30,373 nucleotides of DNA from the UHGV virus genome UHGV-0127428. The stretch is one strand, 5' to 3'. The position numbers and the translations under genes were made by a program. This document shows, piece by piece, positions 50-20,983 of this stretch (position 1 is its first letter; each line of letters starts with the position of its first letter). The notes under the pieces are model-generated. The model saw only the letters and a program-made list of their open reading frames with translations, was not told the origin of the DNA and did no database searches. Source of the stretch: a virus.

Positions 50-442
50 TCAACGAATACTGATGCCGGAAGCGACTTTTTTGGTCACAATCACCGTACA
101 GTCGGTGATATTACCTGCCCACTGATTGCCTTTATGGAAAACCTTAAACTCCAGAGTGACGCTTCCCCTGCCACTCGGCATATCAATAATCGCACTGTAG
201 CTACCGGGAAGACGGGCTGATAATTCATTTTCGCCTGCATCACGCCCGGCAATGCGCACCTGATACCAGCCCTCATTCAGTTTCTGGCGAAACGACGGAA
301 GCTGCGTGGCCAGCGCCCGGATGGCTTCGGCCCCCGTTTTCACACGAAGGTCGATGCGGTGGCCAAATCGTTGTAAATCCCCGTAAAGGCAGATGCGTGC
401 CATGCCCGGTGACGCCAGAGGGAGTGTGTGCGTCGCTGCCAT
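50..442 (-). CDS. I: lambda-like tail assembly protein I, N-terminal portion; C-terminus divergent and possibly truncated
   Basis: The N-terminal ~100 aa (MAATHTLPLASPGMARICLYGDLQRFG...) match my recollection of lambdoid gpI. The ORF is shorter than lambda I as I recall it and is followed immediately by a terminator rather than a J-like gene. Confidence 0.6.
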   Translation of the reverse strand: MAATHTLPLASPGMARICLYGDLQRFGHRIDLRVKTGAEAIRALATQLPSFRQKLNEGWYQVRIAGRDAGENELSARLPGSYSAIIDMPSGRGSVTLEFKVFHKGNQWAGNITDCTVIVTKKVASGISIR

Positions 443-1092
443 TTGTCGGTATACCTCTCTCGTTTGCTCAGTTGTTCAGGAATATGGTGCAACAGCTCGC
501 CGTCGCCGCAGTAAATGGCGGCATGATTCGGCACCGATGAACCAAAACAGCACAGCAGCACATCGCCCGGTTGTGCTGATGACAACGGCACCTGATACAG
601 CCCTGTGGCCTCCAGATTATCCAGATAGAGATTCTGACCGTGACGCCACCAGTCATCCCCGCGATGAAAATCCGGCATCTCAATTCCCGCCAGATGGTAA
701 GCATCCCGGAACAGCGTGTAACAGTCCGTCACCCCGTGCTCAAAGCGCCGCCCGGTGAGATGCGGCACACAGCGGAATTTATGAATCGCCCCCCGGCAGA
801 CCAGCCACCACGGCAAATCACTCTGCACCTGCAGCCGCCGGTCGGTCTCACTCAGCCAGGGCAGACCACCGGGGTGGCTGTGGACCAGCGCCACAATCTC
901 ACCCTGCATCTCTGCCCGCAGCCAGTCCTCCGGCGACATCCGGAAATACTCCTCCGGCTCACCGGAGATATTCACGCAGGGAAAATATCTTTCCCCCTCC
1001 GGTGTTCTCACCACGAAGCCGCACGACTCCGCTGGCGCACATCGCCGGGCGTGCGCCAGAATCGCTGATTCTGTCTCTGTCATGGGATTCAC
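340..1092 (-). CDS. K: lambda-like tail assembly protein K (JAMM/MPN plus NlpC/P60 domains)
   Basis: HSHPGG...SETD JAMM-type metal-binding motif and a C-terminal Cys-containing NlpC/P60-like region (TDCYTLF), typical of gpK; sits between L and I as in lambda. The true start may be the internal ATG at 1083 (MTETESAIL...). Confidence 0.8.
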   Translation of the reverse strand: MNPMTETESAILAHARRCAPAESCGFVVRTPEGERYFPCVNISGEPEEYFRMSPEDWLRAEMQGEIVALVHSHPGGLPWLSETDRRLQVQSDLPWWLVCRGAIHKFRCVPHLTGRRFEHGVTDCYTLFRDAYHLAGIEMPDFHRGDDWWRHGQNLYLDNLEATGLYQVPLSSAQPGDVLLCCFGSSVPNHAAIYCGDGELLHHIPEQLSKRERYTDKWQRRTHSLWRHRAWHASAFTGIYNDLATASTFV

Positions 1093-1727
1093 TGCGAAAG
1101 TTTGTTAATGGAAAGGAAGCCGCCAAAGTTGCCGACGTTATTGCGAAACTTACAGCCGCTCAGGCATTTGCTGCATTTATCCTTCGTGATATCGGACGTC
1201 GGCTGATCATATTCATCCGCGACCGCCGGACCGTGATAACCGCACTCATCACCGCGATAGGTCCAGGTGCAGGTGTTGGCCAGCATGATACGTCCCGGAA
1301 AAACGGCACCGTCCGTTTCCGTCGGCGTGGACAGTACAAAAGAGGCACTCACCGCGCTCAGTTCGCTGCACTGCTCGATGCGCCAGCGGCTGATCACCTC
1401 CTGCTCCGGATCGGCGTCACTGTTTCCGTTGACGAAGTTCACCGCATCCAGAAAACGGGCGTAAACCTTACGCCGGACCACCGTTCCTCCGACCAGACTC
1501 TGCAGGTCTTCCGCCATCCCGGTGACCATGCCGTGCAGGTTAGAAACCGTCAGTGTCGGACGGGCAGCACTGCCCTTGCCGTTCAGTTCAAATCCCGTCC
1601 CCTGAATGGGATACGCCTGATACTGTCGCCCCTGCCAGGTGACCGGCTCACCTTTTTCGTTCTGCTCATTACAGAAAAAGTAGCGTTCACCACCGACCTC
1701 TGTCAGATCGATTTCCCAGAGCACCAC
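1089..1727 (-). CDS. L: lambda-like minor tail protein L; canonical start codon apparently missing
   Basis: Strong gpL-like sequence (VVLWEIDLTEVGGERYFFCNEQNEKGEPVTWQGRQYQ...). The called start is a GTG. The frame stays open and gpL-like upstream (KDGIPQETHHETTRLTQSAQ) to about 1787, where AAG sits at the position expected for the ATG. Confidence 0.75.
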   Translation of the reverse strand: MVLWEIDLTEVGGERYFFCNEQNEKGEPVTWQGRQYQAYPIQGTGFELNGKGSAARPTLTVSNLHGMVTGMAEDLQSLVGGTVVRRKVYARFLDAVNFVNGNSDADPEQEVISRWRIEQCSELSAVSASFVLSTPTETDGAVFPGRIMLANTCTWTYRGDECGYHGPAVADEYDQPTSDITKDKCSKCLSGCKFRNNVGNFGGFLSINKLSQ

Positions 1728-1927
1728 CTGGGCTGACTGAGTGAGGCGTGTCGTCTCATGATGTGTTTCCTGTGGAATACCGTCCTTTTTACAAAACAGA
1801 GAAGAGCATCACCGGACGACGGGCTCATAACCCAATCCATCCGGGCGGCAGTCACCGCAGGTGTTCTTCTCTGTTTTGTGGAGAAACTAACCGACCTTGC
1901 AGGGTCGATATGATGAGGAGCAGCAAA

Positions 1928-2290
1928 ATGGCTAGCGAACGCAGTACTGATGTGCAGGCATTTATCGGGGAGCTGGACGGCGGCGTATTTGAAACCAAAA
2001 TCGGCGCAGTTCTCAGTGAAGTCGCTTCCGGTGTGATGAACACGAAAACCAAAGGTAAGGTCTCGCTCAACCTGGAAATCGAACCGTTTGATGAGAACCG
2101 AGTGAAAATCAAACACAAACTCTCATATGTTCGCCCGACTAACCGCGGGAAAATTTCCGAAGAAGACACCACCGAAACGCCGATGTATGTCAATCGCGGT
2201 GGTCGCCTGACTATTCTGCAGGAAGACCAGGGACAGTTACTGACTCTTGCCGGTGAACCTGACGGAAAACTCCGCGCAGCAGGTCGTTAA
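1928..2290 (+). CDS. yfdP: YfdP-like prophage protein (120 aa)
   Basis: ATG at 1928 preceded by gaggag; 120 aa; precedes the YfdQ/R/S/T-like genes in the same order and with the same lengths as I recall for the E. coli CPS-53 yfdPQRST cluster. Identity is from memory, not a search. Confidence 0.5.
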   Translation: MASERSTDVQAFIGELDGGVFETKIGAVLSEVASGVMNTKTKGKVSLNLEIEPFDENRVKIKHKLSYVRPTNRGKISEEDTTETPMYVNRGGRLTILQEDQGQLLTLAGEPDGKLRAAGR

Positions 2291-2355
2291 TATCGTTTTT
2301 AATTAACTGATTATTTATCTCATCACTGAATATCTTTATATAGTGAGGACTTATT

Positions 2356-3180
2356 ATGTCTCAGAACTTAGACGCAACCGCAATTAATCAAATCCATGCC
2401 CTTATTTCTGCTCAGGGTGTTAATGAAATTATCAGTAAGATTGGTGCCGATGCTGTGGCATTGCCTGAGAATTTCCGCATTCATGATCTGGAAAAATTTA
2501 ATTTAAATCGCTTCCGTTTCCGTGGTGCGCTTTCCACTGCCAGCATCGATGACTTTACCCGTTATTCTAAAGATCTTGCAGATGAAGGCACCCGCTGCTT
2601 TATCGATGCTGATAATATGCGTGCCGTCAGTGTGCTTAACCTGGGTACTATTGATGAACCAGGTCACGCAGATAACACCGCCACACTCAAACTGAAAAAG
2701 ACAGCACCGTTCTCTGCTCTGTTGTCTGTTAACGGCGAGCGTAACTCCCAGAAGTCACTAGCAGAATGGATTGAAGACTGGGCCGACTATCTTGTGGGCT
2801 TTGATGCTAATGGTGACGCTATTCAGGCAACAAAAGCGGCTGCGGCTGTCCGTAAAATCACGATTGAAGCAAACCAGACCGCTGATTTTGAAGATAATGA
2901 CTTCAGCGGCAAACGCTCCCTGATGGAGTCTGTCGAAGCGAAGACCAAAGACATTATGCCAGTGGCATTTGAATTTAAATGCGTTCCGTTTGAAGGTCTG
3001 AAAGAACGTCCGTTTAAATTACGCCTCAGTATTATCACTGGCGATCGTCCTGTACTGGTTCTGCGCATTATTCAGCTGGAGGCGGTGCAGGAAGAAATGG
3101 CTAACGAATTTCGTGATCTGCTTGTTGAGAAATTCAAGGACAGCAAAGTAGAAACCTTTATTGGTACTTTCACCGCCTGA
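2356..3180 (+). CDS. yfdQ: YfdQ-like protein (DUF2303 family, 274 aa)
   Basis: 274-aa ORF with a clean ATG start; length and operon position match YfdQ of the CPS-53 cluster. No catalytic motif recognised. Confidence 0.6.
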
Positions 3181-3307
3181 TTTCATTACTGCAAATGCCC
3201 CTGCGGGGGCATTTATGGAAACGTAATTTACTCAATAATCGCCGGATGGTGAGGGATTCTTTTTGCCAGAATTCAGCGCGGTGCAGCGCATATACGTGGA
3301 GAACAAA

Positions 3308-3844
3308 ATGTCATTTATTAAAACTTTTTCCGGGAAGCATTTTTATTATGACAGGATAAATAAAGACGACATCGATATTAACGATATCGCGGTTTCCCTT
3401 TCAAATATCTGTCGCTTTGCCGGTCATCTTTCGCACTTCTACAGCGTCGCCCAACATGCGGTTCTTTGCAGCCAGCTGGTGCCGCAGGAATTTGCTTTTG
3501 AAGCGTTAATGCATGATGCAACAGAAGCGTATTGCCAGGACATTCCCGCACCACTGAAACGCCTTCTTCCTGACTATAAACAAATGGAAGAAAAAATAGA
3601 CGCCGTAATCCGTGAGAAATACGGGTTACCCCCAGTTATGAGTACGCCCGTGAAATATGCCGATCTCATCATGCTGGCAACCGAACGCCGCGATCTCGGG
3701 CTTGATGATGGCTCTTTCTGGCCTGTACTGGAAGGTATCCCGGCAACAGAGATGTTCAACGTGATTCCACTGGCACCGGGCCATGCCTACGGGATGTTTA
3801 TGGAACGCTTTAACGAGTTATCGGAGTTACGCAAATGCGCATGA
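3308..3844 (+). CDS. yfdR: YfdR-like HD-domain phosphohydrolase (5'-deoxynucleotidase family)
   Basis: Start chosen at the ATG at 3308 (MSFIKTFSGKHFYYD...), giving 178 aa. HD signature present (ALMHDATEAY). Matches the recalled YfdR N-terminus and length. Confidence 0.7.
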   Translation: MSFIKTFSGKHFYYDRINKDDIDINDIAVSLSNICRFAGHLSHFYSVAQHAVLCSQLVPQEFAFEALMHDATEAYCQDIPAPLKRLLPDYKQMEEKIDAVIREKYGLPPVMSTPVKYADLIMLATERRDLGLDDGSFWPVLEGIPATEMFNVIPLAPGHAYGMFMERFNELSELRKCA

Positions 3845-4197
3845 ATATTTTCGAAATGGAAGGGTTTCTTCGTGGGAGATGTGTACCGCGAGATCTGAAA
3901 GTAAATGAAACAGATGCTGAATACCTGGTGCGTAAATTCGATGCGCTTGAAGCTAAATGTGCAGCACAGGAAAACAAAGTAATACCAGTGTCAACTGAAC
4001 TGCCACCAGCAAATGAAAGTGTTTTGTTATTCGATGCTAACGGAGAAGGCTGGCTAATTGGCTGGCGTTCTCTCTGGTACACCTGGGGACAAAAAGAAAC
4101 CGGAGAATGGCAGTGGACATTTCAGGTCGGGGACCTTGAAAACGTCAATATCACTCACTGGGCAGTAATGCCAAAAGCACCGGAGGCTGGAGCATAA
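3835..4197 (+). CDS. yfdS: YfdS-like protein (120 aa)
   Basis: 120-aa ORF overlapping the yfdR stop; position and length match YfdS. A paralogous N-terminal domain recurs at 25288. Confidence 0.5.
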   Translation: MRMNIFEMEGFLRGRCVPRDLKVNETDAEYLVRKFDALEAKCAAQENKVIPVSTELPPANESVLLFDANGEGWLIGWRSLWYTWGQKETGEWQWTFQVGDLENVNITHWAVMPKAPEAGA

Positions 4198-4502
4198 TGA
4201 CCACTTTTACCGACAAAGAACTGATTAAAGAAATTAAAGAGCGTATCAGCAGCCTTGACGTGCGAGACGATATTGAGCGCCGTGCTTATGAAATCGCACT
4301 CCTATCTCTGGAAGTAGAACCAGATGAACGCGAAGCTTATGAATTATTCATGGAAAAGCGTTTCGGTGACTTAGTAGATCGTCGGAGAGCAAAAAACGGC
4401 GATAACGAATACATGGCATGGGATATGACTCTCGGTTGGATCGTCTGGCAGCAACGAGCTGGTATCCATTTTTCAACAATGTCACAGCAAGAGGTGAAAT
4501 AA
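4197..4502 (+). CDS. yfdT: YfdT-like protein (101 aa)
   Basis: 101-aa ORF; ATG overlaps the stop of the previous gene; position and length match YfdT. Confidence 0.5.
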   Translation: MTTFTDKELIKEIKERISSLDVRDDIERRAYEIALLSLEVEPDEREAYELFMEKRFGDLVDRRRAKNGDNEYMAWDMTLGWIVWQQRAGIHFSTMSQQEVK

Positions 4503-4852
4503 TGGAGCCATACAGCCTCACACTCGATGAGGCCTGTCATTTTCTCAAGATATCCAGACCGACTGCCATTAACTGGATACGCACAGGGCGTCTTCAGGCA
4601 ACACGCAAAGATCCCACTAAGAATAAATCTCCTTACCTCACAACACGACAAGCCTGCATTGCGGCTCTTCAGTCTCCGCTGCATACTGTCCAGGTGAGCG
4701 CGGGTGATGGCATAACAGAGGAAAGAAAATGTCACTCTTCCGCAGAGGTGAAATATGGTACGCCAGTTTCACATTGCCGAACGGTAAAAGATTTAAACAG
4801 TCTCTTGGAACAAAGGACAAAAGGCAGGCGACAGAACTCCATGACAAGCTAA
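4502..4852 (+). CDS. xis: P22-type excisionase (Xis)
   Basis: ATG at 4502 overlaps the yfdT stop (taATGg). The 116-aa product ([38 protein letters not shown]...) resembles P22-family Xis and overlaps the int start, as is typical. Confidence 0.7.
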
Positions 4853-5892
4853 AGGCTGAAGCATGGCGGGTCAGCAAACTTGGTGAAATACCTGATATAA
4901 CGTTCGAGGAAGCGTGTGTCAGGTGGCTTGAAGAGAAAGCACATAAAAAATCACTGGACGATGACAAAAGCCGGATCGGATTCTGGCTTCAACATTTCGC
5001 AGGGATGCAACTAAGAGACATCACTGAATCAAAAATTTATTCAGCGATGCAGAAAATGACAAACCGGCGTCATGAGGAAAACTGGAAACTCAGGGCAGAA
5101 GCATGCAGAAAAAAAGGGAAACCTGTTCCAGAATACACGCCAAAACCAGCGTCCGTTGCAACGAAGGCTACGCATCTTTCATTTATAAAGGCCCTGCTAA
5201 GAGCCGCAGAGCGTGAATGGAAAATGCTTGATAAGGCACCAATTATTAAAGTGCCTCAACCGAAGAATAAACGTATCCGCTGGCTGGAGCCTCATGAAGC
5301 ACAAAGGCTGATTGATGAATGTCCGGAGCCATTAAAGTCTGTTGTTGAATTTGCACTGGCAACAGGCTTAAGACGCTCGAACATCATCAACCTTGAATGG
5401 CAACAAATAGACATGCAGCGCCGGGTGGCATGGATAAACCCGGAAGAGAGTAAATCAAACCGCGCAATTGGCGTTGCGCTGAATGATACTGCATGTCGCG
5501 TATTGAAAAAACAAATCGGGAATCATCACCGTTGGGTATTTGTTTACAAGGAAAGCTGTACCAAACCAGACGGAACGAAAGCGCCAACGGTCAGGAAGAT
5601 GCGGTATGACGCAAACACAGCCTGGAAAGCGGCGCTGAGACGAGCAGGTATTGATGATTTCAGATTTCACGACTTGAGACACACCTGGGCAAGTTGGCTG
5701 GTTCAAGCCGGAGTCCCGTTGTCAGTGTTACAGGAAATGGGAGGCTGGGAGTCTATCGAAATGGTTCGTCGATATGCTCACCTCGCACCTAATCACCTTA
5801 CCGAACACGCACGGCAAATAGACTCGATCCTGAACCCATCGGTCCCAAATTTGTCCCAGTCAAAAAATAAGGAAGGTACTAATGATGTGTAA
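4729..5892 (+). CDS. int: P22-type tyrosine integrase
   Basis: 387 aa; the N-terminus [27 protein letters not shown] matches my recollection of P22 Int. Catalytic signature present ([29 protein letters not shown]). Stop lies immediately before an att core copy. Confidence 0.9.
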
Positions 5893-5925
5893 CTTATTGA
5901 TTTAAATGGTGCCGATAATAGGAGT
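5893..5925. repeat. att core copy 1 (short): cttattgattt-aaa-tggtgccgataataggagt
   Basis: Its 19 nt tggtgccgataataggagt equal the reverse complement of the 3' end of tRNA-Thr (ACTCCTATTATCGGCACCA). Similarity to the tRNA stops after ggagt, where element B sequence begins. Same flank motif as copies at 18458 and 30324. Confidence 0.7.
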
Positions 5926-6067
5926 AAAACACTCGATTAATCTCGTGTTAATGCCATCACCTACGACCATTACTAATTGATTGAATCTTATAGAAAAATC
6001 ATCATTTTCTATGCGTCACAATCAATTTTCACATTACAAACGCTCCGACACTTTAGCCGGAGATTTT

Positions 6068-7345
6068 ATGAGATACAAGCCTAACCAATACTTAATCTGT
6101 GATTCTTACGGTAACTACTATTTAAGGATCACGCTGCCTGTGTATATGCAGCCCTTTTTTGAAGGAAAAAGGACGTTTGTCAGAAGTCTACACACAAGTA
6201 ATCTTCGTGTTGCACGTAGAAAGCGTGATCAGATTGCAGATGAATACCATTGCTTACGGGAGAGTGTTGCCCCTGTAAACAGCACAATAGAAAACACGCT
6301 GGAACTGTTACGCAGTAAGGCTAAATACGCCAAAACAGCTACCAGAGTGCAAGATACAGCGTCTTCGTGTCCGTCATTGCTTAAAATTCTTGAAATCTAC
6401 CTGACAATTAACAGCACGAAGAAGAAGCCAGCCACTTTAGCTAAGGCAAGAAAAGCGGTAGAGATGTTTCTCTCCTACCGTAAAAAGCCTGATATTGCAT
6501 TGCAAGATGTAAGCCGCACCACTGTTACAGGCTGGATTGAACACATGCAAAAAACTCTTTCACAACAATCAATTGCAAATTATATCAGTCCAATGGCCCA
6601 GCTATGGGAATTAGCTTCATCACGTTACCACGATGCGCCAGAAAGGGCGCTCTCCCCCTGGCGAGGGCATAGGCTTGATGTGGCACAAAGTAGAGAGAGC
6701 TACGAGGCATTTTCTAACAAAGAGCTATTGCAGGTGTTGCAAGTATTTTCCGGTAATTCAGCAGAAAACAAAGAAATGACGGCTTTGTGTCTTATCGGTT
6801 TATATACAGGTATGCGGATCAATGAGATAGCAAGTCTCACAATAGACGATGTGAAAGAGATCGAAGGTGTGCTGTGTTTTGAAATCACACAGGGAAAAAC
6901 GAAAGCTGCGGCACGTCTTGTGCCTGTGCATAGCCTTATCACTCCATTGGTGTTATCTCTTCGTGAAAAGCCTCACAATGGCTTTTTGTTCTATCACGCC
7001 AGCATTACAGAACGTGCTGACGGTAAACGCTCTACGTGGCATACACAACGATTTACAAGAGCTAAACGAAAGGCTTTAGGGGAAAAGGGAACAGAAAGGA
7101 AAGTGTTTCATTCTCTGAGACACGGAGTAGCACAGCTTCTTGATCGAAATCAAATTCCAGAGGACCGCATAGCTTTAATGTTGGGCCATCAGCGCGGCAA
7201 TACAGAAACATTCCGCACATATAGCAAGAATGCAGCTTCTCCAGTAGAGCTTAAAAAATATATTGAGCTTTTACGCTACCCTGAAATAGAGAAAGGCTTA
7301 TCAATCAATAAAAAATCAAATTTAAGGCGTAAAACAACGCTATAG
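6068..7345 (+). CDS. tyrosine recombinase/integrase of element B, distinct from the P22-type integrases
   Basis: Catalytic signature present: GMRINEIASL (Arg), HSLRHGVAQL (HxxR), GHQRGNTETFRTYSK (Tyr). Start chosen at the ATG at 6068 with ggag 6 nt upstream; the tool's TTG start at 5981 is less likely. Lies immediately inside the left boundary of element B. Confidence 0.75.
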   Translation: MRYKPNQYLICDSYGNYYLRITLPVYMQPFFEGKRTFVRSLHTSNLRVARRKRDQIADEYHCLRESVAPVNSTIENTLELLRSKAKYAKTATRVQDTASSCPSLLKILEIYLTINSTKKKPATLAKARKAVEMFLSYRKKPDIALQDVSRTTVTGWIEHMQKTLSQQSIANYISPMAQLWELASSRYHDAPERALSPWRGHRLDVAQSRESYEAFSNKELLQVLQVFSGNSAENKEMTALCLIGLYTGMRINEIASLTIDDVKEIEGVLCFEITQGKTKAAARLVPVHSLITPLVLSLREKPHNGFLFYHASITERADGKRSTWHTQRFTRAKRKALGEKGTERKVFHSLRHGVAQLLDRNQIPEDRIALMLGHQRGNTETFRTYSKNAASPVELKKYIELLRYPEIEKGLSINKKSNLRRKTTL

Positions 7346-7352
7346 ACGTAAT

Positions 7353-7386
7353 AAAGAGGCTTCAATATAGACTGATGCCTCTTTTA
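7353..7386. terminator. bidirectional terminator hairpin between convergent genes
   Basis: Stem agaggc / gcctct (7355-7360 and 7377-7382) with a T-run after it; lies between the end of the integrase (+) and the end of the 219-aa gene (-). Confidence 0.45.
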
Positions 7387-7425
7387 TGATTATCTCGTTA
7401 CAGAGCGTTTCATAGGCGTTTAAGG

Positions 7426-8085
7426 CTATTGTTTAAATACTGGCGTTACAACGTCTTGCCCTGGGCTTTTTGTATTTACCTGCATTTTAATCTGTCCCCC
7501 TACAGATTTATTTGGTGCTGTTTTTACCGCAATTGCGCTTGTAGTTGCTTTAGAGACAAGACGGATTTGCTCAAAATCAAGAGTAAACAATAGGCTTTCG
7601 CTTGCTTCTTCTTCATAAGACATGCCAACTAACACAACGTTGTCATAATTTTTTAACTCAGTGACAAGTAGGAAAGGTTGGCGACTGTCCATCAACTGAT
7701 TTAGGTATTCAAGCATAAGCATACGTCGATTGCCGTTAATTCCCGCATTCTTAATCATATCGGGATTGAGCTTCAATACGGTTTCAGAGATACGCCCCTG
7801 TAATGTGAACTTGTTATTCCGTATTTGAACATGATCACTAACTTCTGATCCTGATTCGACGGCATAGCTTGTAACGTCTGCATTTCGGCTAACTTTCGTC
7901 GATTCCACGCTATCAAATGATAATGCCTGGTAGTCATTGTAAGCAGCATTTGCACCACTGCCGAGGTTAGAGGTAATGATCGCAAAGCCGTTACCCCCTT
8001 TAGTTGTTCTACCGTTGCTATCGTTGCTTGTGCTGTTGATTTTCGCCTCAGTCGGGCGACCAATGGTTAACGGACCCATTGCCAT
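7426..8085 (-). CDS. hypothetical protein (219 aa), last gene of the capsid-like operon
   Basis: Good RBS (aagga) upstream of the ATG at 8085; Gly/Asn/Ser-rich N-terminus; no recognisable motif. Confidence 0.5.
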   Translation of the reverse strand: MAMGPLTIGRPTEAKINSTSNDSNGRTTKGGNGFAIITSNLGSGANAAYNDYQALSFDSVESTKVSRNADVTSYAVESGSEVSDHVQIRNNKFTLQGRISETVLKLNPDMIKNAGINGNRRMLMLEYLNQLMDSRQPFLLVTELKNYDNVVLVGMSYEEEASESLLFTLDFEQIRLVSKATTSAIAVKTAPNKSVGGQIKMQVNTKSPGQDVVTPVFKQ

Positions 8086-8132
8086 AATTTGTAATCCTTA
8101 TTTAAGGGGGCTAAACTGCCCCACAGTGATGA

Positions 8133-9974
8133 TTAATAGGTTGACCCGCCTGACATAACACCCAGCGTTAATAGCTTGCTAAACTCAGCGGAGGATGCCT
8201 TTGATTTGAAGTCGATAAATTCGCTCAATCGTCCGGTGTCTGATTCGATAGTTAGCGGCACTTCTGCATTTACTTGTAATTCTGGATTGAAGTTAATAAC
8301 AGGTGCAAAGGTGTAAGAAGGAGCCTTGAAAGCTTGTTGTGCTGCACTCTGTTTCAGATTTGCAATGTTTTGTCCTTCGAGACTGTATTGATTTACAGCC
8401 TGCGCCCCACCTACCGTTTCTTCTGGCATAAACCAGCTTTTAATAGTGTTAACCAGGGAATTGCTGTTATCTGGCTTAGTTGTTCCGGTGCCAGCGCCTT
8501 TATATTGATCAGGAGTGAGATTAGAAAGATTCTGCTTCATTCCTTCGTTAGATAGTGGCGGTGCATCCCCTAAATTCTTTTGAATAGCTGCCGTCTTCTC
8601 GTCGTTTTTCATCAGCCAGTTGATTGCTTTCATTACAGCGTTAACCAATCCGCCGATAGCCTCGCCTAATTTGGTAAACATTGGCAGCATTGCAACCATG
8701 CTCTTTTTAAACTCTTCAATCACTTTCGGATCAAGAGATTTCATAAAGCCATCAACAAAGGCGATCCCTTGTGAGTCAGAAAGCCCACTAAGTGCATTAT
8801 TCAGTTCACGGAATTTAATAACGCTTTCCTGTTGTGCCTGCGTTACCCAGCGCCCTGATTCTCGTTGTTCTCGTGCTGATTGTTCCACTTCTTTAGCGGA
8901 GCGTGTCCAGTATTTAGAGGTGAGCATCAAATCATCAGCCAGATCTTCCAGACGACTACCGATTTGTGCATCTGAATAGCCTTTAGCTACCATTCCCTGA
9001 ACTGCTTTACTAACCAGACCAGCCGGATTATCAGCAAAGTCTTTTAGATCCTTTTTAGTTAAGAATCCTTCATTCATTAAAGTATTGATGCCGCTATCGC
9101 CGCCCTTCCATTCTCCTTTACCTGTTTTTTTATCGACTACATATTCAGCCTCATCATAGCTTTTGGTTGCACGCTCACGCACATCTTTCATCTGATCGAG
9201 ATACTTACGTTTACCTTGATCCCCCATCATTGAATCAACGCCGTTTTTGTAGGCCCATTGCTCAATATTGTTCATCTGGTTAACGTCTACACCGCCCAGC
9301 TTCGCACGGCTATACAATTCTCCCAGCGTTTCAGCACTGGCAAAGCTGTTAGTAACAAATTCAGAGGCTTTGCTCATAGCCATATATGCAGCGCCAGCGC
9401 CTAAGCCACCCAGCATAACAGCCGCAGCACCGCCGCCAATACTCCCGCTACCCTTAACAGGTGCATAGGCTTTAGCGTGAGCGTTACGATTGCCATTAAT
9501 CTTACGTTGTTGCTGTTGTAGGCGTTTCATTTGGCTATTCATACGTGCCAGACTAATAGCGCCTCTTTCATATTGGAGGGCAATTTCTCTAGCCTGTGCA
9601 ATAGCTTTATATTGTTCCGCTACAGAAAGACGGTGCATTGCACTAATGCTTGATCCAACGTCTAAAAGCTTTAATTCTGCCTTCTCTTTGCGTGCTGCCA
9701 GGGCTTTTTGTTCTCTTGCAACTACACGTTGAGCGGCTAATTGTGCTTTAGCATTAGCTTTATCAGCCTGTGCTTGCTTTTTAGCAATATCGTCTACGTC
9801 TTTTTTTGCTTTAGCGGTTGATTGTTTATGTGTCTTAACACGCAATTCTATATCTTTCACAGCCGCCATTTGTTTACGAAGTTTTTCTACTTCTGCTTTT
9901 GCTTTCTCTAATGATGGTCGGTTAACTTCGAAGGTGACAACGTTCGAGAGGCGTGCCACGTTTAGCTCTAACAT
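8133..9974 (-). CDS. tape-measure-like protein (613 aa; coiled-coil N-terminus plus Gly-rich hydrophobic segment)
   Basis: N-terminal Lys/Ala/Gln/Glu-rich predicted coiled coil (KLRKQMAAVKDIELRVK...AKAQLAAQRVVAREQ) followed by GSGSIGGGAAAVMLGGLGAGAAYMA. This architecture is typical of phage tape-measure or internal virion proteins; assignment is by composition only. Confidence 0.4.
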   Translation of the reverse strand: MLELNVARLSNVVTFEVNRPSLEKAKAEVEKLRKQMAAVKDIELRVKTHKQSTAKAKKDVDDIAKKQAQADKANAKAQLAAQRVVAREQKALAARKEKAELKLLDVGSSISAMHRLSVAEQYKAIAQAREIALQYERGAISLARMNSQMKRLQQQQRKINGNRNAHAKAYAPVKGSGSIGGGAAAVMLGGLGAGAAYMAMSKASEFVTNSFASAETLGELYSRAKLGGVDVNQMNNIEQWAYKNGVDSMMGDQGKRKYLDQMKDVRERATKSYDEAEYVVDKKTGKGEWKGGDSGINTLMNEGFLTKKDLKDFADNPAGLVSKAVQGMVAKGYSDAQIGSRLEDLADDLMLTSKYWTRSAKEVEQSAREQRESGRWVTQAQQESVIKFRELNNALSGLSDSQGIAFVDGFMKSLDPKVIEEFKKSMVAMLPMFTKLGEAIGGLVNAVMKAINWLMKNDEKTAAIQKNLGDAPPLSNEGMKQNLSNLTPDQYKGAGTGTTKPDNSNSLVNTIKSWFMPEETVGGAQAVNQYSLEGQNIANLKQSAAQQAFKAPSYTFAPVINFNPELQVNAEVPLTIESDTGRLSEFIDFKSKASSAEFSKLLTLGVMSGGSTY

Positions 9975-10008
9975 GTTAATTGTTTCCCTGTATTATGATT
10001 GTTGTTTG

Positions 10009-10206
10009 TTATTGTTTTTTAGAACAATAATATTGGATTGCTTCGAAAGTGCTGCACCCAGTCTGAAAGACACGCTGGCGCACATTATTTGCATCAATTT
10101 CTAAAAGGCGGCAAAGCGCCGATGTGTTTATAACTGATTCCTCGCTAATAGCTGCCAGTTCTTTTACAGATTTAAGAATTAATGCCTGTGAATTTTCTGT
10201 ATTCAT
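10009..10206 (-). CDS. small hypothetical protein (65 aa from the ATG at 10206)
   Basis: Internal ATG with gagag RBS; the longer 91-aa frame starts in a hydrophobic, unlikely leader. Confidence 0.3.
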   Translation of the reverse strand: MNTENSQALILKSVKELAAISEESVINTSALCRLLEIDANNVRQRVFQTGCSTFEAIQYYCSKKQ

Positions 10207-10360
10207 TGGTTTTCTCTCACATATATATATTTTTATTTGGGTTTGTAGACAGTAGAAAAACAAAAAGGGCAAGAGACAGCGCATATTTTGCTTATATGAT
10301 TATCCCTTACCCTTATTGCCCCGATTATTTCCAGACGTAGGGGAACGTCTTTAACACTTT

Positions 10361-11389
10361 TTACGCTACTGTGATCTGCACAGAGAAGCCAACACCGTGG
10401 TTAACCACAAGCGAGCTATTCTCGGTCACTACGTGCACTGCGTCGCCGCGATTCGATTCGAAAGCATAGCTGTAATACTCTTTAGCGCCTTGAGACAGCA
10501 GATCGAAGGAACTGGAAGGCGCGCCATAGATAGCTTGGTAAACACCTCCACCCTTAGCGAATTTAGGCACGGCTACAGCGTCAGCGGTCATATGTGCCAG
10601 CAGCAGCGGATCAGTCACTTTGATCAGATCAATGTTAGTTCCTGGAATGGTGAAAGTAGTTACGCCAGGCAGCAGAGAACGCACATTAAACACCACGTTT
10701 GCATCGTCTACAGGGCTTGCATATTGGAACGCATTGACCATGCCAACGCTGTAACGAATAGCGTTGAATGCCGCAGGTTTACAGAACACAACAACACGCT
10801 CAATGGTTGCAGCCTGGCTTTGTGCCTTAGCAATCATATCCGTATGCATCTGATCAAATTGCTTGAATACGGTCATTGTGTTGGTGCTGGATGCGTCAAC
10901 GGTTGCAGTCATTGGAGACACACCGAACAGAGTGCTGTAATCGATCAGAACATCGTCAGTTTTCGGGGTATGTGTCTTGCCAGAGAACAGAGAAGCCGCG
11001 AGGATGCTTTCTTTAGTGCGCTGGAATGCAACATTGTGTTTAGCGATATATTCCGCATACAGATCCGGCAGTGTTTCTTCAATAGAGCTTCCGGCTTTGC
11101 GTTTGCCTTGCACGTCCTGCGGTTTGATCAGGTCTTCACGCAGGAAGTAAGGGATTTCAATCAGCCATTCTTCCCCGTTCTCACGCTTAGTAACGTTATG
11201 CTCAGAGCTAAAACGGCTTGTAGGATGGTTGAACAGAGATTCATTGCTCTCGATAAGCTGGGAAACAGCCACTTTGTGACTTTCTACAGGCACAGGATCA
11301 GTAAAATCCAGAGTAGACAGTAGGTAATTGCGTGAGTCGTTTAATTCGAACAGTGGAGCAAGATCAACCACTTCATTTCCGATAATCAT
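10361..11389 (-). CDS. candidate major capsid protein (lambda gpE-like family)
   Basis: 342 aa, similar in size to lambda E (about 341 aa). The C-terminal ...GFSVQITVA resembles the recalled lambda E C-terminus ...FVSVQLA. It is directly preceded by a small decoration-sized gene, as D precedes E in lambda. Strong RBS. Family assignment is tentative. Confidence 0.45.
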   Translation of the reverse strand: MIIGNEVVDLAPLFELNDSRNYLLSTLDFTDPVPVESHKVAVSQLIESNESLFNHPTSRFSSEHNVTKRENGEEWLIEIPYFLREDLIKPQDVQGKRKAGSSIEETLPDLYAEYIAKHNVAFQRTKESILAASLFSGKTHTPKTDDVLIDYSTLFGVSPMTATVDASSTNTMTVFKQFDQMHTDMIAKAQSQAATIERVVVFCKPAAFNAIRYSVGMVNAFQYASPVDDANVVFNVRSLLPGVTTFTIPGTNIDLIKVTDPLLLAHMTADAVAVPKFAKGGGVYQAIYGAPSSSFDLLSQGAKEYYSYAFESNRGDAVHVVTENSSLVVNHGVGFSVQITVA

Positions 11390-11405
11390 TATTATTTATT
11401 CCTTC

Positions 11406-11780
11406 TTAAGATGTGAAAACAGAGTGGAAGCCTTCAAGCTGGAAGCCTTTAGCAGCGAGAGCTGCAATAGCAGCTTCTTTTACAGCGCCTTCGGCATTCA
11501 GGGCATCAGCTTTGATGCAAACGAGTCCGGCATTAGCACGAAGCACGTTAACTGTTTTATTTGAATCAGCAGTTACGAAGTCAGACACAACGACAAGAAC
11601 ATCAGCGCCGCTAACATATTTAGCGCCGGATGAATCAATGAGGTCGCCGCACGTTACATCTTGTGCAAGTGCTGCAAATTTTTTGCTTTCTACAGCCGCG
11701 TAAGGGTCGGTTGCATAGCTCACTACGTCAGTGATGCTTTTACGATGTGGGAAAACATCGCTTAATTTTAAAATAGCCAT
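11406..11780 (-). CDS. candidate head decoration-like protein (124 aa)
   Basis: Size and position immediately upstream of the capsid-like gene; Ala/Val/Gly-rich beta-type composition; aagga RBS. No direct motif evidence. Confidence 0.35.
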   Translation of the reverse strand: MAILKLSDVFPHRKSITDVVSYATDPYAAVESKKFAALAQDVTCGDLIDSSGAKYVSGADVLVVVSDFVTADSNKTVNVLRANAGLVCIKADALNAEGAVKEAAIAALAAKGFQLEGFHSVFTS

Positions 11781-11989
11781 TATTTTTCCTTAGATTGTTT
11801 GATTTGTTGAGCTTTAGCATTAATCAAATCTTGGTGAGATGGTTTATTGCTTTCAGCCTTATAAAGACGTTCACACTGTTTCTTTAATTCTGTGGGAGTG
11901 ATGCCAAGCGCGTAGGCTGTAGCATTCAACACATCTTCAGTTAGTGTTAACTTTTCATTGCCATATTTCAGGATAATTTCTTGTTTCAT
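11780..11989 (-). CDS. small hypothetical protein (69 aa), first gene of the capsid-like operon
   Basis: ORF whose stop overlaps the start of the next gene; lysine-rich and helical in composition. Confidence 0.35.
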   Translation of the reverse strand: MKQEIILKYGNEKLTLTEDVLNATAYALGITPTELKKQCERLYKAESNKPSHQDLINAKAQQIKQSKEK

Positions 11990-12983
11990 TTATATAACGA
12001 TTCCATTATGTTGGAATTTAATAAATCCCCCAGGCTATAAGAGGTTCAATCTGACAATAGCGAGGGGGATTTATTAACGTGTCGGGCAATACACAGCGAT
12101 AAGTAAAACCTTGAGGAGGTTTTAAACGTATCTCTAAGAATGCTTATTAAACATGCTTAAAGATAGGTTTAAAGGGTGAACAGATATTCCTGAAAACATG
12201 CTCTTAGGAAAACATGCGGAATCAATCAGGAATATCTATTCGGGGCGCGGTGGCTAACCGCTATCTTTCATGGTGTGGATGCACCAGTCAGATTTTAAGG
12301 AATCACTATTCCAATCTACTCACAGATTAAATTTTTAATAATGATTAACTACACCAACAGTAATCTACCGTTTCAGAAAATCGTTTTTACAACCAAAGCT
12401 TATAGATCCGCATTCTATAAAACCCGTTTTGCTATCAATATTTCCAAAGTTTATTGCACCATTCTTAGCTAAACTCTCTCTACTTGCGGCTAACGCTATG
12501 CAGATGATAGTTTTTTGACAACAACTTAATAGATTATTCTGTTACTAACTTCTGTCATTAAATAAGAGTTTAATGATGTTAGTAAATAGTTATAAAATAT
12601 AACTATCAGTGTAAGGCTCTTTAATGTTTTCGGACAAAATAAGGAGCTTTAGGATAAGCATAGATGAAAAATAAGAGCGGGAAGGGCAAGGAGATAACAC
12701 CTACCCGCTTTTATCAAAAATTAAGCACAATGCCTAACAACATTTATCAACACAACGTAGAAACAATCAACAATCAAAGAGGGAGTTATGATTATTCTAA
12801 AACTTCTTGAGGGGATGGAAGGTAATATTTGTTAGAGGTTAATGCCATTCAACCTTTGAGGCTATCACCTTCCATATGCAGGGATTTATGACAGGAAAAG
12901 GATTAACACCAGTCAAAACCTTTTTATCTACCCCTAATATTATTATATAATGAAATCGTTATAAATGCAAATGATTTTTATTA

Positions 12984-13292
12984 TCATTTAGAGAAAATAG
13001 CACTTTTTGCTAAATCATCTACTAATTGCTGAATCTCTTCACTTGCAGCCTTTAACGTGCTGGCGGTGTCTGTGATGGTTTGAGTGCACATCTTGGCATT
13101 GTCCTCAATTAGCTCTAAATCTCTCACCAGAGAGATAAAATCGTCAAGGCTTACATTCACCTTCATTAAGCTAATAACGCATTGAGAGAGCGTGTAATCG
13201 CATAAATCTGAATAGGCTTGATTTATTCTTGTTTGTAGTGAGATAGTCAGATCTAAAAGTTGTTCCATTGCATTGCTAATATCTTCTTCCAT
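12984..13292 (-). CDS. hypothetical acidic protein (102 aa)
   Basis: aaggag RBS; start overlaps the stop of the upstream gene (taATG); no recognisable family. Confidence 0.45.
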   Translation of the reverse strand: MEEDISNAMEQLLDLTISLQTRINQAYSDLCDYTLSQCVISLMKVNVSLDDFISLVRDLELIEDNAKMCTQTITDTASTLKAASEEIQQLVDDLAKSAIFSK

Positions 13293-13495
13293 TATGCGGC
13301 TTCTCCTTGTAATGCATCATTAATCATATTCAATACGATGTTAAAAGGTGTCTTGAGCGTCAGCACTTCATCACGGTAACGCTCTAATGCTTCGTAGTCT
13401 TCTGTTTCTTTTGCCAGTCGGATTAACTCAGCATAGTTTTTTGCATCAGACAGGATCATCTGAAATAATTGTGTTTCTTGAATATAGCCAATCAT
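13292..13495 (-). CDS. hypothetical protein (67 aa from the internal ATG)
   Basis: The internal start MIGYIQETQ... has a strong aaagga RBS; the longer 81-aa frame begins in the intergenic region. Confidence 0.4.
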   Translation of the reverse strand: MIGYIQETQLFQMILSDAKNYAELIRLAKETEDYEALERYRDEVLTLKTPFNIVLNMINDALQGEAA

Positions 13496-13552
13496 TATTT
13501 TTCCTTTTTTGAATATTTTCATTGGGCGCTTATACATACGCCCATCATTTTA

Positions 13553-13933
13553 TTAGTTAGAACGTTTGTTAGAAGCTAATGTATCTTCTAAATGAGCCAT
13601 CAGATCGACTTCCGATGCACCACCTACACAATTATTGAAAGCGTTAAATCCCAAAAAATGATGATAGGAGCTAAACCCTAAAAGCTGCCAACGTTTCAGA
13701 GTGCCATCAGAAATGATAGTTTGTTTTCTTGTTCTTGGGCGAAAGTAAACGCCTGGCATTGACTGGATTATTTCTAATTCTTCATCGCTTAATTCAGGGG
13801 ATTCTGTTTCAAGAATAAAGATTATCTCTTCCCCTGGATCGTTATTGGTGTGTGTCGGTGGACGTTGTCTTTTTGAATTGAAATTACTGTTTTTTTCAAT
13901 ACGTTTTAAGTTATTACGTTTCTTTTTTCCCAT
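13553..13933 (-). CDS. hypothetical protein (126 aa) with a basic N-terminus
   Basis: Strong RBS (aagaggga); N-terminal MGKKKRNNLKRIEK...; no recognisable family. Confidence 0.45.
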   Translation of the reverse strand: MGKKKRNNLKRIEKNSNFNSKRQRPPTHTNNDPGEEIIFILETESPELSDEELEIIQSMPGVYFRPRTRKQTIISDGTLKRWQLLGFSSYHHFLGFNAFNNCVGGASEVDLMAHLEDTLASNKRSN

Positions 13934-14116
13934 TTTCCCTCTTTTTATGTGGATTATAAAAACTTAATGTCATTGTTACGATGAATATCGCCATAAATGC
14001 ATTTGCCATATGTATTGCCCGATCTGTTGTTATTGATTGTTTGTGATAAACAATTCAAAATCTTTGTTTAATTTCAAAAGACGAAATGTAGTGCTGTTAT
14101 AAGCCATTTATTCTCC

Positions 14117-14686
14117 TTAGAATGGTATTGAATCGTATATTTCACTTTTTTCTCTTAGAGATATTATCAGATCGTGAAAAGCCTGTTTCTCAAGATAGAT
14201 ATTCTTTGAATCTAATGCTCGTTTTACAAAATCTTCTGTTTCTTCGTGCGGTGGTTTCTTCTTATCAAGGGAAAGAAGCCAAGTAAAAATTTCGGGCCGC
14301 TCAGGGAACTCTGATTCCTGTATTTCTTCTTCAACGATGATTTCGGAAACATTCAATATTCCATTAGATTCGTCTTCTTTCTCAGAAGGATCAGGTAGTG
14401 ATGATTCTCCTTTTGGAATATCAAGCACTCGATAAAGGTTAGAGCTTCCTGGTCGTGCATCTTTTATAATTAATCCCATTTCGAGCAATTTCTTAACCCT
14501 TTCTTCTGCTGCTCTTGGTGTTATGCCAAAAACATCGCCTATCTTAGCGTAAGAGGGAAATGCACGATCAAACCCTCTCAAATAGCAGTAAAGGTTTTTA
14601 GCACTATCTGTAAATTTATGCCCGTTTACTTGGCTTATTTTTAGAATCCACATAGGAACTTTTACAAATTGTTCTTCATTAATCAT
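14117..14686 (-). CDS. replication initiator-like protein (winged-HTH Rep family)
   Basis: Start set at the ATG at 14686 with aaggag 8 nt upstream. N-terminal region (LYCYLRGF...AFPSYAKIGDVFGITPRAAEERVKKLLEMGLI) is typical of plasmid/phage wHTH replication initiators; acidic C-terminus. An iteron array lies 1.3 kb upstream. Confidence 0.5.
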   Translation of the reverse strand: MINEEQFVKVPMWILKISQVNGHKFTDSAKNLYCYLRGFDRAFPSYAKIGDVFGITPRAAEERVKKLLEMGLIIKDARPGSSNLYRVLDIPKGESSLPDPSEKEDESNGILNVSEIIVEEEIQESEFPERPEIFTWLLSLDKKKPPHEETEDFVKRALDSKNIYLEKQAFHDLIISLREKSEIYDSIPF

Positions 14687-14739
14687 TAAAAATCTCCTTG
14701 ATGTAATCACGCTCTACGGCGCTACTATGGTGATAAAAA

Positions 14740-14910
14740 TCACTTGCTTTTGTTTGAGAGTGTTTCAGCCTCTCTTTTCAACATATCAAGAATGTAATCT
14801 GTAACAGTGATACGTTTACTTCTGGCTTCTTTAAACAACACCTGAAATACTTCATCAGGAATATGAAAGCAAGTGCGTGGTTGTCTTTTCTTTTCTGTAG
14901 TTTCGCTCAT
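14740..14910 (-). CDS. small ribbon-helix-helix (CopG/Arc-like) regulator candidate (56 aa)
   Basis: MSETTEKKRQPRTCFHIPDEVFQVLFKEARSKRITVTDYILDMLKREAE fits an RHH pattern (beta strand then two helices); strong RBS; immediately upstream of rep. Confidence 0.4.
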   Translation of the reverse strand: MSETTEKKRQPRTCFHIPDEVFQVLFKEARSKRITVTDYILDMLKREAETLSNKSK

Positions 14911-14931
14911 AGTTTTCTCCTTCTCCTGTTA

Positions 14932-15108
14932 TTATTCTTTCTCTGCCTTACGCAGTTCATCAATAATTTTTAGTGCATCGTCAAAGCATTTTTCACGCTC
15001 TGGATAACCACAGCGTCGCGCTGTGTTCCTGTTCATCCTTACTTTAAAACGATTAATCTCACCACGTTTCCAGGCTTCAACTACATCCTGTGGAGTAAAA
15101 TATTTCAT
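14932..15108 (-). CDS. small hypothetical protein (58 aa)
   Basis: ATG with a perfect aggagg SD; first gene of the rep operon. Confidence 0.35.
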   Translation of the reverse strand: MKYFTPQDVVEAWKRGEINRFKVRMNRNTARRCGYPEREKCFDDALKIIDELRKAEKE

Positions 15109-15960
15109 TAATTAGCCTCCTTATTCTATTTGGTTAAAAGAAAAAACACCTTGCAAGCCTTGTTGGGCTTCAAAGTGCGGTGCATTGGTTTAATTACTTA
15201 GAGGATAAGAATGTTTTCTGTCCCTAATATTACTTTACCACGACTAAAAGCTTTTGTCAACCCCTAGCCATAAAAATATTGATCATTTTCAGTGTGTTAT
15301 AATTTTTCTTAGCAATTCGTGCTCTTACGAGTGCTCCTATTCTTCCTTATTCTCTAAAACGCTCTAAAACGCCCTCTGACGAGGTTTTGATAAATACAAT
15401 ACATTCCCTTATGTAGAGGCTGTTTAGCTCGCCTACGGCTTGATTTAAGCGGTAGAATCTTATTTAACCTTCAACTACTAAAACCATTCTTTCTTTTTTG
15501 TTTGTTGTTGGTTGTTGTCTGTGTCTATGTGCTAACATCGCTAACGCGTAGCACACAAGGTTATTGCACTCGTCAGAGTATTGCACAATAGATTTTCTCT
15601 TAAATAGATTGATGATCGTTAGATGGTAGTTAGTTAATTATCGTTATGCGCACAGCGCAAGACTATTTAGCCTTACGCAAGCCGTAGGCTATTTGCACAT
15701 AGTAGATTACATATTCGTTGTGAGCGGCATTAGCGAACATAGATCTACTAACTAACATCAACAAACAAAAACTATGTGTTATGACAAGCAGTCTAACGAT
15801 TAACACTCTAACTTGTGCAAGGTTCTGGCGAATGCCAATAGATTAAGGGATAGTCAAGGACTCCCCTAACGGGTATCTCTATAATTATTCTTTAAAGATA
15901 AAAGAATTTATAAAAGATAATTTAATTGTAGTTTGATAGTTGATCTAATAGGTAACAAAA

Positions 15961-16096
15961 TTCTGTAGGGGTGGCTAACAGTTTTCTGTGGGGGTGTATA
16001 ACATAATTCTGTTAGGGTTGGGGTAACAGTTTTCTGTTAGGGTGCATATTTCTTTAAAAGTTAAGGATAACAGAATTCTGTGGGGGTAGTTCACAG
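15961..16096. repeat. iteron-like direct repeats (five copies of TTCTGTnGGGG...), candidate replication origin
   Basis: Copies start at 15961, 15984, 16007, 16032 and 16076, mostly 23-25 bp apart, consensus ttctgt(a/g/t)ggg(g/t)t; set in AT-rich noncoding DNA upstream of the rep operon. Confidence 0.6.
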
Positions 16097-16480
16097 TGAC
16101 CTACCGTTACATCCATTTATCACATAACATCTGTGCAATGATCTTCTAAAAGTGTTTCTTGCTACCAAAATTAAACATCTAAAACAGGCTTAAATTCAAT
16201 GTAATTGATGATTAATCCCTGTGTAATTCCTACGTAAAAATCCAATGAAAAGTAGCTTAAAAAGTGCAATGTTAGCTTTCTTCACTTTTACATCACTTTC
16301 GCAAAGCCGCATTACACACGGCTTACAGAGCACTATCAGAAATTGTTGATTAAAAATCAATCTATTATTTGTCGAACAAGTTTCCTTTAATGCAACAAAA
16401 AATTATTTTTTCAAAATAAACACACTATTTAATAGCTTGCTAATTTTACCAAAATGTAACTACATGATTCTCATGCAAGA

Positions 16481-16586
16481 CGTGTAGTGATAAAGCAGGC
16501 TAAATCACCACACTAAAAACCTTCGAATTTCGTAGTGAAAAAAGTCCTTTACACACCTAATCAACACGATCAATAATCACTACACG
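16481..16586. promoter_or_regulatory. candidate res-like recombinase binding region (11-bp inverted repeat)
   Basis: cgtgtagtgat (16481-16491) and its reverse complement atcactacacg (16576-16586), plus repeated atcaacac / atcaccaca motifs, immediately upstream of the serine recombinase gene. Confidence 0.25.
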
Positions 16587-16612
16587 CAAATCAACACAGA
16601 AGGAAAATGAAA

Positions 16613-17164
16613 ATGGCTAATATTGGATACATTAGGGTATCGACTGTCCAACAAAACACAGACCGTCAATTAGCTGGAGTAACTCTTGATAAAGTCTTTG
16701 AAGATAAAGCGTCAGGCAAGAATACCCAGCGCCCACAGTTTGAGGCAATGATGAACTATGTGCGTGAAGGTGATGTTTTGCATGTTCACAGCATTGATCG
16801 ACTTTGCCGTAATACAGCCGACCTACTGGCAACGGTTGAGCAATTAACAGAGCGCGGCGTGTCTGTGCATTTCCATAAAGAAGACTTTAAGACAGGGAAG
16901 AACTCTCCCGCAGGGAATATGATGCTCACAGTGCTTGCAGCAGTGGCACAAATGGAACGTGAAATGATGCTTGAGCGGCAACGTGAGGGGATCGCCGCAG
17001 CTAAGGCCGCTGGACGTATAGCAAAACGTGGTAATGGAAAAGCAATTGATCGAGCGGGAATTGTTGCCGCTCTCGCGAATGGTGGATCAATTCGGAGCGT
17101 AGCAAAAGATTTCAGTGTCAGCACACAGACGGTGCAACGTATCAAGAAAGAGCAGGAAGCGTAA
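16613..17164 (+). CDS. serine recombinase (resolvase/invertase family)
   Basis: N-terminal MANIGYIRVSTVQQ with the catalytic Ser, plus a C-terminal HTH-like tail (SIRSVAKDFSVSTQTVQRI). The start could instead be the ATG at 16607. Confidence 0.8.
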   Translation: MANIGYIRVSTVQQNTDRQLAGVTLDKVFEDKASGKNTQRPQFEAMMNYVREGDVLHVHSIDRLCRNTADLLATVEQLTERGVSVHFHKEDFKTGKNSPAGNMMLTVLAAVAQMEREMMLERQREGIAAAKAAGRIAKRGNGKAIDRAGIVAALANGGSIRSVAKDFSVSTQTVQRIKKEQEA

Positions 17165-17648: not shown

Positions 17649-17714
17649 TAATTTCACTATCAGGCGCATAAACACATCTTTGATCGCTGGATGTGTTATG
17701 CGCCTACTGGTGAT

Positions 17715-20937: not shown

Positions 20938-20943
20938 AACATT

Positions 20944-20962: not shown

Positions 20963-20983
20963 ATACATTAAAAGTATCACATG

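Follow-up and report, generated by a model that had tools for sequence, protein, structure and literature searches.

The five-gene block and its identity

The virus genome UHGV-0127428, a stretch of 30,373 nucleotides (nt) referred to here as the window, carries at positions 1928-4502 five intact plus-strand open reading frames (ORFs), which correspond in order, strand and length to the genes yfdP-yfdQ-yfdR-yfdS-yfdT of the CPS-53 (KpLE1) prophage of Escherichia coli K-12. Their products comprise 120, 274, 178, 120 and 101 amino acids (aa), the same as their K-12 counterparts, to which they are identical over the full length at 98% (YfdP), 99% (YfdQ), 98% (YfdR), 95% (YfdS) and 96% (YfdT). This correspondence had been noted in an earlier interpretation of the DNA made without database searches, called here the sequence-only reading, and it is borne out by the BLAST comparison with K-12. 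Between the window and the K-12 copy, the ratio of nonsynonymous to synonymous substitution rates (dN/dS) is 0.05-0.14 for each of the five genes, indicating that yfdP-yfdT are genuine genes under purifying selection. The block is also frequent, being found by megablast in 3709 of 5426 complete E. coli genomes, or about two thirds, with at least 80% of the query located at one place in 1939 of them. One of the RefSeq genomes, NZ_CP101263, contains a 100%-identical stretch, in which the genes are named yfdP, yfdQ, yfdR (5'-deoxynucleotidase), 'phage protein'/YfdS family, and yfdT.

The domain content of the block is summarized in Table 1. The assignment of YfdQ as a DUF2303 protein, already made in the sequence-only reading, is unambiguous, as the PF10065 profile is matched from position 2 to 269 of its 269 positions at 309.7 bits (gathering cut-off 26.6). 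The C-terminal DUF551 (PF04448) of YfdS is marginal, scoring 22.2 bits at a gathering cut-off of 22, and the N-terminal domain of the same protein is common to phrog_614 and phrog_14548. The genes are closely packed, with a 10-nt overlap between yfdR and yfdS, a single shared base at each of the yfdS/yfdT and yfdT/xis boundaries, and an overlap of xis and int like that in phage P22. An NCBIfam search of the block proteins returned nothing useful. It is virtually certain that 1928-4502 represents a yfdP-yfdT module derived from a lambdoid temperate phage of the SfV/SfIV type. The block is already known, having been named in K-12 and described in SfV and SfIV in exactly the same context; a known module in a known context has little discovery value, and its recognition here is ordinary though correct.

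Table 1. Coordinates and supporting evidence for the yfd block and associated features of the window
Feature	Position	Strand	Evidence and remarks
yfdP	1928-2290	+	120 aa; phrog_204 E=1e-49; PF27127 (newer Pfam; precomputed on homologues)
yfdQ	2356-3180	+	274 aa; DUF2303 PF10065 E=2e-92
yfdR	3308-3844	+	178 aa from ATG; HD-domain; phrog_318 E=3e-110; listed ORF starts at TTG 3263
yfdS	3835-4197	+	120 aa; shuffled N-domain of ~45 aa and C-terminal DUF551
yfdT	4197-4502	+	101 aa; start overlaps yfdS stop, stop overlaps xis start; phrog_660 E=7e-31
yfdP leader, conserved	1778-1927	+	150 nt; long hairpin, arms 1791-1815 and 1855-1879; GAGGAG ribosome-binding site
xis, P22/SfV-type excisionase	4502-4852	+	HTH_17; 87% identical to P22 Xis; excisionase in SfV and SfIV annotation
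int, P22/SfV-type tyrosine integrase	4729-5892	+	Phage_integrase E=3e-48; 90% identical to P22 Int
att core, copy of the thrW 3' end; boundary with next tandem element	5907-5925	+	exact 19-mer TGGTGCCGATAATAGGAGT
Lambda-type minor tail protein L gene	1089-1778	-	Pfam Phage_tail_L E=1e-99; RefSeq CDS L001 11362-12051; 5' end is the deletion junction
Element C gene with YfdS N-domain	25288-25830 (ORF from 25270)	+	BLASTP E=2e-21; phrog_614 and phrog_583 in common with YfdS
Element C gene with YfdT-like N-terminus and C-terminal DUF551 as in YfdS	27281-28132	+	DUF551 E=1e-18, 68.4 bits

Arrangement at thrW and relation to SfV, SfIV and CPS-53

From 1778 to 5900, a distance of 4.1 kb, the DNA of the window is 99.3% identical to that of Shigella phage SfIV and 98.8% identical to that of SfV. 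Both phages display the order cI, at least one short ORF, yfdP-like, yfdQ, yfdR, yfdS, yfdT, xis, int, attP and gtr; in these two phages and in PhiR47_1, the block comes after cI, in the same orientation, and leads into xis-int or Ea22. In SfIV, which integrates at thrW, the five genes are orfs 30-34, a cluster described as lacking a known function and common to SfV at more than 98% identity (PMC3851460); for SfV, in which they are orfs 28-32, integration at thrW is cited from the same source. The window shares with these two phages the leader, the five genes, xis, int and thrW integration, and differs from them in that the cI/promoter region and all DNA further upstream have been deleted, with opposite-strand lambda-type tail genes standing there instead. 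The gtr genes beyond attP are absent from the window because that side is occupied by another tandem element.

The tandem organization is evident from the attachment-site (att) sequence, since the 19-mer of Table 1 occurs three times without mismatch (5907-5925, 18474-18492 and 30338-30356; 0.01 expected by chance), and the third copy continues into thrW itself at the edge of the window. The 19-mer is identical to the end of the tRNA-Thr gene in a RefSeq locus (L001), and in NZ_CP101263 the same int adjoins tRNA-Thr and proA; ARAGORN detected no whole tRNA in the window. Three copies of the thrW 3' end imply three tandem elements at thrW, namely element A up to 5925, element B from 5926 to 18492 and element C from 18493 to 30356, with the yfd block lying within element A. 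The full three-element array was found in no complete E. coli genome of the collection searched.

The sequence-only reading had recognized the P22-type xis-int and the thrW-type att, both of which are upheld by the similarities in Table 1, and had set this context against the argW context of CPS-53. The thrW location is indeed observed, but it is not an unusual re-attachment, as it corresponds to the published SfV/SfIV arrangement. A novel recombinant involving a thrW/P22-type attachment was considered as a candidate and rejected in view of the 98.8-99.3% identity to these phages. The argW/IntS/TorI context of CPS-53 was not encountered in the window, but it concerns the surroundings of the genes and not the genes themselves.

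The comparison with K-12 also bears on the direction of change. The window is colinear with K-12 at the DNA level from ~1907, 20 nt before the ATG of yfdP, to ~4560, 58 nt into xis, and the pseudogene-like ypdJ of K-12 keeps the first ~19 codons of xis in frame, with the start ATG changed to ATA (12095-12235 of the K-12 locus L002, against 4502-4560 of the window). The presence of xis codons within ypdJ identifies the argW/TorI context of K-12 as the derived form, the CPS-53 arrangement having arisen from the SfV-type one. Upstream, CPS-53 has the yfdO spacer with boxes for the host regulator SrsR, whereas in the window the SfV-type leader is joined to tail gene L; downstream, CPS-53 has the ypdJ remnant, TorI and argW/IntS, whereas the window retains intact P22-type xis-int and the thrW att. 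The ypdJ/xis boundary marks the joint of the recombination through which CPS-53 acquired its TorI end.

P22 itself uses the same thrW target, with Int and Xis closely related to those of the window. Its ea region, like the exo-xis region of lambda, represents the same slot as the yfd block, consisting of accessory genes just upstream of xis (PMC10834534). Where the window has yfdP-yfdT, P22 has eaC, eaG, eaA and further ea genes, as well as abc and erf, and the P22 ea genes are without sequence similarity to the yfd core.

Deletion junction, leader and expression

Phages and almost all other genomes are homologous to the window only from 1778 onwards, placing a junction at 1777/1778. On the other side of it, on the opposite strand, lie the lambda-type tail genes L and K and a fragment of I. 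The tail assembly protein I-like ORF (50-442, minus strand) appears truncated or fused. RefSeq treats its counterparts in L001, a tail assembly protein and fragments of the tail tip, as partial pseudogenes, in keeping with extensive decay of element A. Element A is a deletion-remnant prophage: the DNA that once separated tail gene L from the yfdP leader is missing in its entirety. The exact junction between tail L and the leader is found in only 3 of the 5426 complete genomes. In several other genomes, a tail L gene is likewise annotated at this edge of the leader, in the form of a diverged allele, so the deletion may predate the present tail sequence.

The leader that follows the junction contains a 25-nt inverted repeat with 84% complementarity, for which a predicted RNA fold of -62.4 kcal/mol (z=-5.1) is obtained. 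Variant loci have A-U or G-C in place of the single G.U pair (1806/1864) of the hairpin. A search of Rfam with the leader hairpin and the block gave no match, and the hairpin region (1787-1883) is absent from K-12. An RNase III site, a terminator and a translational control element are all possible roles for this structure.

In SfV, a near-consensus sigma-70 promoter, TTGACA-16-CATAAT (6121-6148 of the SfV locus L003), is located directly after the cI terminator and ~1 kb upstream of yfdP. This sequence, which carries no annotation in the record, is a candidate early-left promoter for orf33 and the yfd block. Both the SfV-type promoter and cI belong to the DNA upstream of the junction at 1778 and are deleted in the window, and a simple, crude consensus scan found no sigma-70-like promoter on the plus strand between 1600 and 6000. 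With the promoter/repressor region lost, the genes of the block are intact yet probably poorly transcribed in this copy.

The persistence of intact genes under purifying selection in prophage remnants, together with the high frequency of the block among E. coli genomes, raises the alternative that it is retained because it helps the lysogen, through stress tolerance or lysogenic conversion, and not because it serves the phage. According to papers citing Wang 2010, deletion of CPS-53, yfdQ or yfdS lowers tolerance of hydrogen peroxide, and in K-12 SrsR binds the yfdO/yfdP spacer most strongly among its targets (PMC9181523). The SrsR boxes, by which yfdP and the block are regulated in K-12, are however situated in K-12-specific upstream DNA; K-12 homology starts only 20 nt before the ATG, and no such box was found near yfdP in the window. 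The same genes are 99% identical in the viable phages SfV and SfIV, so that repeated supply by phages can explain their conservation, and expression in lysogens is made less likely by the placement in an early-left operon under repression. A role chiefly for the lysogen is consequently regarded as quite unlikely.

Conserved core and mosaic genes

The composition of the block was examined in two surveys. The prophage survey comprised 80 IMG/VR loci with an identical YfdQ, 53 of which have enough downstream DNA to be scored, and the species survey comprised 80 species-representative genomes from Enterobacterales and from Marinobacter, Photobacterium, Hahella and others, with YfdQ identities of 41-99%. 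All 53 scorable E. coli prophage loci contain a YfdP-like protein (52 full length, one as a partial match) and a full YfdR. Full-length YfdS is encoded in 31 loci, with only its N-terminal part present in 10 and none in 12; for YfdT, the corresponding numbers are 18 full-length, 12 partial and 23 missing. The break points fall at residues ~41-55 of YfdS and at residue ~42 of YfdT, and the same Xis and Int are found downstream in 15 and 14 of the loci, respectively. At the species level, a YfdP-like gene stands directly upstream of YfdQ in 79 of 80 loci, the last locus being cut at its end; a YfdR-like gene follows YfdQ in 59, and YfdS/YfdT domains are found in only 2-5. The 'five-gene block' is, in reality, a conserved yfdP-yfdQ core, usually accompanied by yfdR, to which yfdS and yfdT are attached as variable mosaic genes.

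The mosaic character extends into the window itself. The sequence-only reading had proposed that the N-terminal domain of YfdS recurs at 25288 in element C and that the block is modular, and both points are supported, since residues 2-45 of YfdS match the N-terminus of the element C ORF (BLASTP, 52% identity over 67 aa, E=2e-21). The modularity can be extended to the protein encoded at 27281-28132, which combines a YfdT-like N-terminus with a DUF551. Its N-terminus shares phrog_660, 3323, 5117 and 60 with that of YfdT; the pairwise BLAST similarities are weak (E=0.12 for the N-terminus and E=0.015 for DUF551), so the N-terminal link is drawn from the shared PHROG profiles. Ea22-type proteins likewise share DUF551 and shuffled N-domains with the yfd block (PMC10834534).

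Genes that are mosaic and shuffle quickly, as YfdS and YfdT do, would also suit an anti-defence or superinfection-exclusion cassette. The accessory regions of temperate-phage early operons often carry anti-defence or exclusion genes. The conserved core of P, Q and R is nevertheless not hypervariable, the PADLOC component models match none of the five proteins at E<=0.01, and the idea is without supporting literature, so that such a function appears highly improbable.

YfdR as an HD-domain enzyme

The HD-domain nucleotidase proposed in the sequence-only reading corresponds to YfdR, although the matches to the Pfam HD/YfbR-like families are weak. YfdR matches the HD protein Atu1052 (PDB 2gz4) with E=3e-14, and the metal-binding H...HD...D motif is kept, with VAQH, MHDA and YAD in YfdR aligned to VAQH, LHDA and KAD in 2gz4. 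The scores stay below the cut-offs for YfbR-like 5'-deoxynucleotidases (24.9 vs 25.9 bits for PF12917, and 20.5 vs 122 for the NCBIfam equivalog NF003009). Judged by these profiles, YfdR is a distant relative of YfbR and not its orthologue. Like YfdR, YfbR, the E. coli 5'-deoxynucleotidase, is an HD-fold metal phosphohydrolase with the H...HD...D motif. As cited in PMC4776307, YfdR is described as a deoxynucleoside 5'-monophosphate (dNMP) phosphatase that is distinguished from YfbR by a far lower nucleotide affinity and by its binding of DnaA.

An alternative explanation is that the module is chiefly a nucleotide-pool device, with dNMP phosphatase activity as the selected function of YfdR, by which precursor pools would be reshaped while the phage grows, and DnaA binding as incidental. 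The intact motif positions point in this direction, as does the name of the family in PHROG and RefSeq (deoxyribonucleoside 5' monophosphate phosphatase/5'-deoxynucleotidase) and the occurrence of the YfdR-like gene after YfdQ in most of the species-level loci. This explanation does not account for the obligate YfdP-YfdQ pair, which is found without a detected YfdR in 21 of the 80 loci, and the substrates of YfdR are dNMPs, not deoxynucleoside triphosphates (dNTPs). It amends the suggestion in the sequence-only reading that the enzyme could alter dNTP pools during induction, an idea that is speculative; YfdR is described as a dNMP phosphatase, and its demonstrated partner is DnaA. A selected role in nucleotide pools is held to be rather unlikely.

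Host replication as the proposed target

The function that can be proposed for the window copy is drawn from the only experiments available, which concern K-12 proteins 95-99% identical to those of the window. K-12 YfdR binds DnaA in a manner dependent on Phe46; multicopy yfdQ and yfdR, together with yfdS or yfdT, inhibit initiation at oriC in vivo, yfdP being dispensable, and extracts oversupplied with YfdQRST inhibit oriC initiation in vitro (PMC4776307). The same source also reports the yfdQ and yfdS deletions as stress-sensitive. The statement in the sequence-only reading that the four genes other than the HD-domain enzyme have no known function is therefore partly outdated, since yfdQ and either yfdS or yfdT are needed with yfdR for the multicopy oriC block, while yfdP and yfdQ are still biochemically unexplained.

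The module constitutes the promoter-distal accessory part of an early-left operon, translationally chained into xis-int. On the basis of the K-12 experiments, it would damp replication of the host chromosome after induction or infection. YfdR, as an HD-fold dNMP phosphatase, would bind domain I of DnaA at Phe46 and compete there with DiaA and DnaB, and the in vivo block of oriC initiation would require YfdQ plus either YfdS or YfdT. YfdP and YfdQ form an evolutionarily fixed pair to which YfdR is usually attached, and YfdS and YfdT would act as interchangeable mosaic adaptors. Shut-off of host replication is tentatively put forward as the most likely natural role of the block, with a confidence that stays a little short of even. 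As an account of the whole, an SfV/SfIV-type early-left accessory module that survives in a thrW remnant and damps host replication is, in all likelihood, the best explanation.

Several observations weigh against the replication role. The replication phenotype was obtained only on overexpression, and its authors allow for a possible artefact; moreover, deletion of yfdQRST had no effect on initiation under normal growth (PMC4776307). The dispensability of YfdP in these experiments concerns the partner most tightly linked to YfdQ, so P and Q, conserved as a pair, may serve another purpose. In addition, YfdR of the window differs from K-12 YfdR at 4 residues.

The YfdP-YfdQ pair

Within this very common phage module, YfdP and YfdQ are the part whose biochemistry still lacks an explanation. 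A sequence search identified a YfdQ homologue of known structure (E=1e-44), namely PDB 9o7m ('YfdQ Protein'), an entry in which a single sequence accounts for 36 chains. The example chain of this entry is chain C, and chains A and B may accordingly be something else. A literature search found no paper on 9o7m, the YfdQ fold had no relative among the solved structures searched up to April 2026, and the YfdP profile gave no match in the PDB.

The pair can be accommodated in two further ways. The first supposes that the invariant YfdP-YfdQ pair is itself a large protein assembly of temperate phages, with YfdR, YfdS and YfdT as add-ons and the leader hairpin as a regulatory switch. If this were true, the core of the module would in fact lie in the biochemical activity of the P-Q assembly, which might for example sequester or remodel a host factor for replication or repair; such a constellation is doubtful on present evidence. 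The second supposes that YfdP-YfdQ provides an unrecognised DNA-repair or recombination function standing in for a Rec module where phages lack one, with YfdQ as a large oligomer. No Rec genes can be recognised in the interval from cI to xis of SfV and SfIV, and the 36 copies in 9o7m and the fixed pairing of P and Q are compatible with an oligomer of this kind. Early-left operons commonly carry the yfdP/yfdQ/HD trio, also in phages that lack a Rec module, and LLS and ST64B are examples of the 'no Rec module' phages for which the cluster is typical (PMC12315714). The same Genome Research study, however, speaks against a concealed role in recombination, since both are present in ArgO145 (PMC12315714), and a repair function is considered improbable. 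Host-replication shut-off is retained as the favoured role of the block as a whole.

Neighbouring elements

Some features were also noted in the two other elements of the array. In element B (5981-18492), a 454-aa integrase with a DUF6538, a SAM-like and a catalytic domain adjoins the att copy. Counterparts of this element elsewhere include an annotated major capsid protein, baseplate protein and recombinase, and some of them are located beside the vat autotransporter gene.

Element C (23461-30323) contains a second lambdoid early-left operon of different make-up, in the order RecT, Gp157, the YfdS-N-like protein, Ead/Ea22, a 265-aa ORF without a Pfam domain, the YfdT-N-like protein with DUF551, small ORFs, an HTH_17 xis and an integrase. 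The integrase of element C is 56% identical to that of element A.

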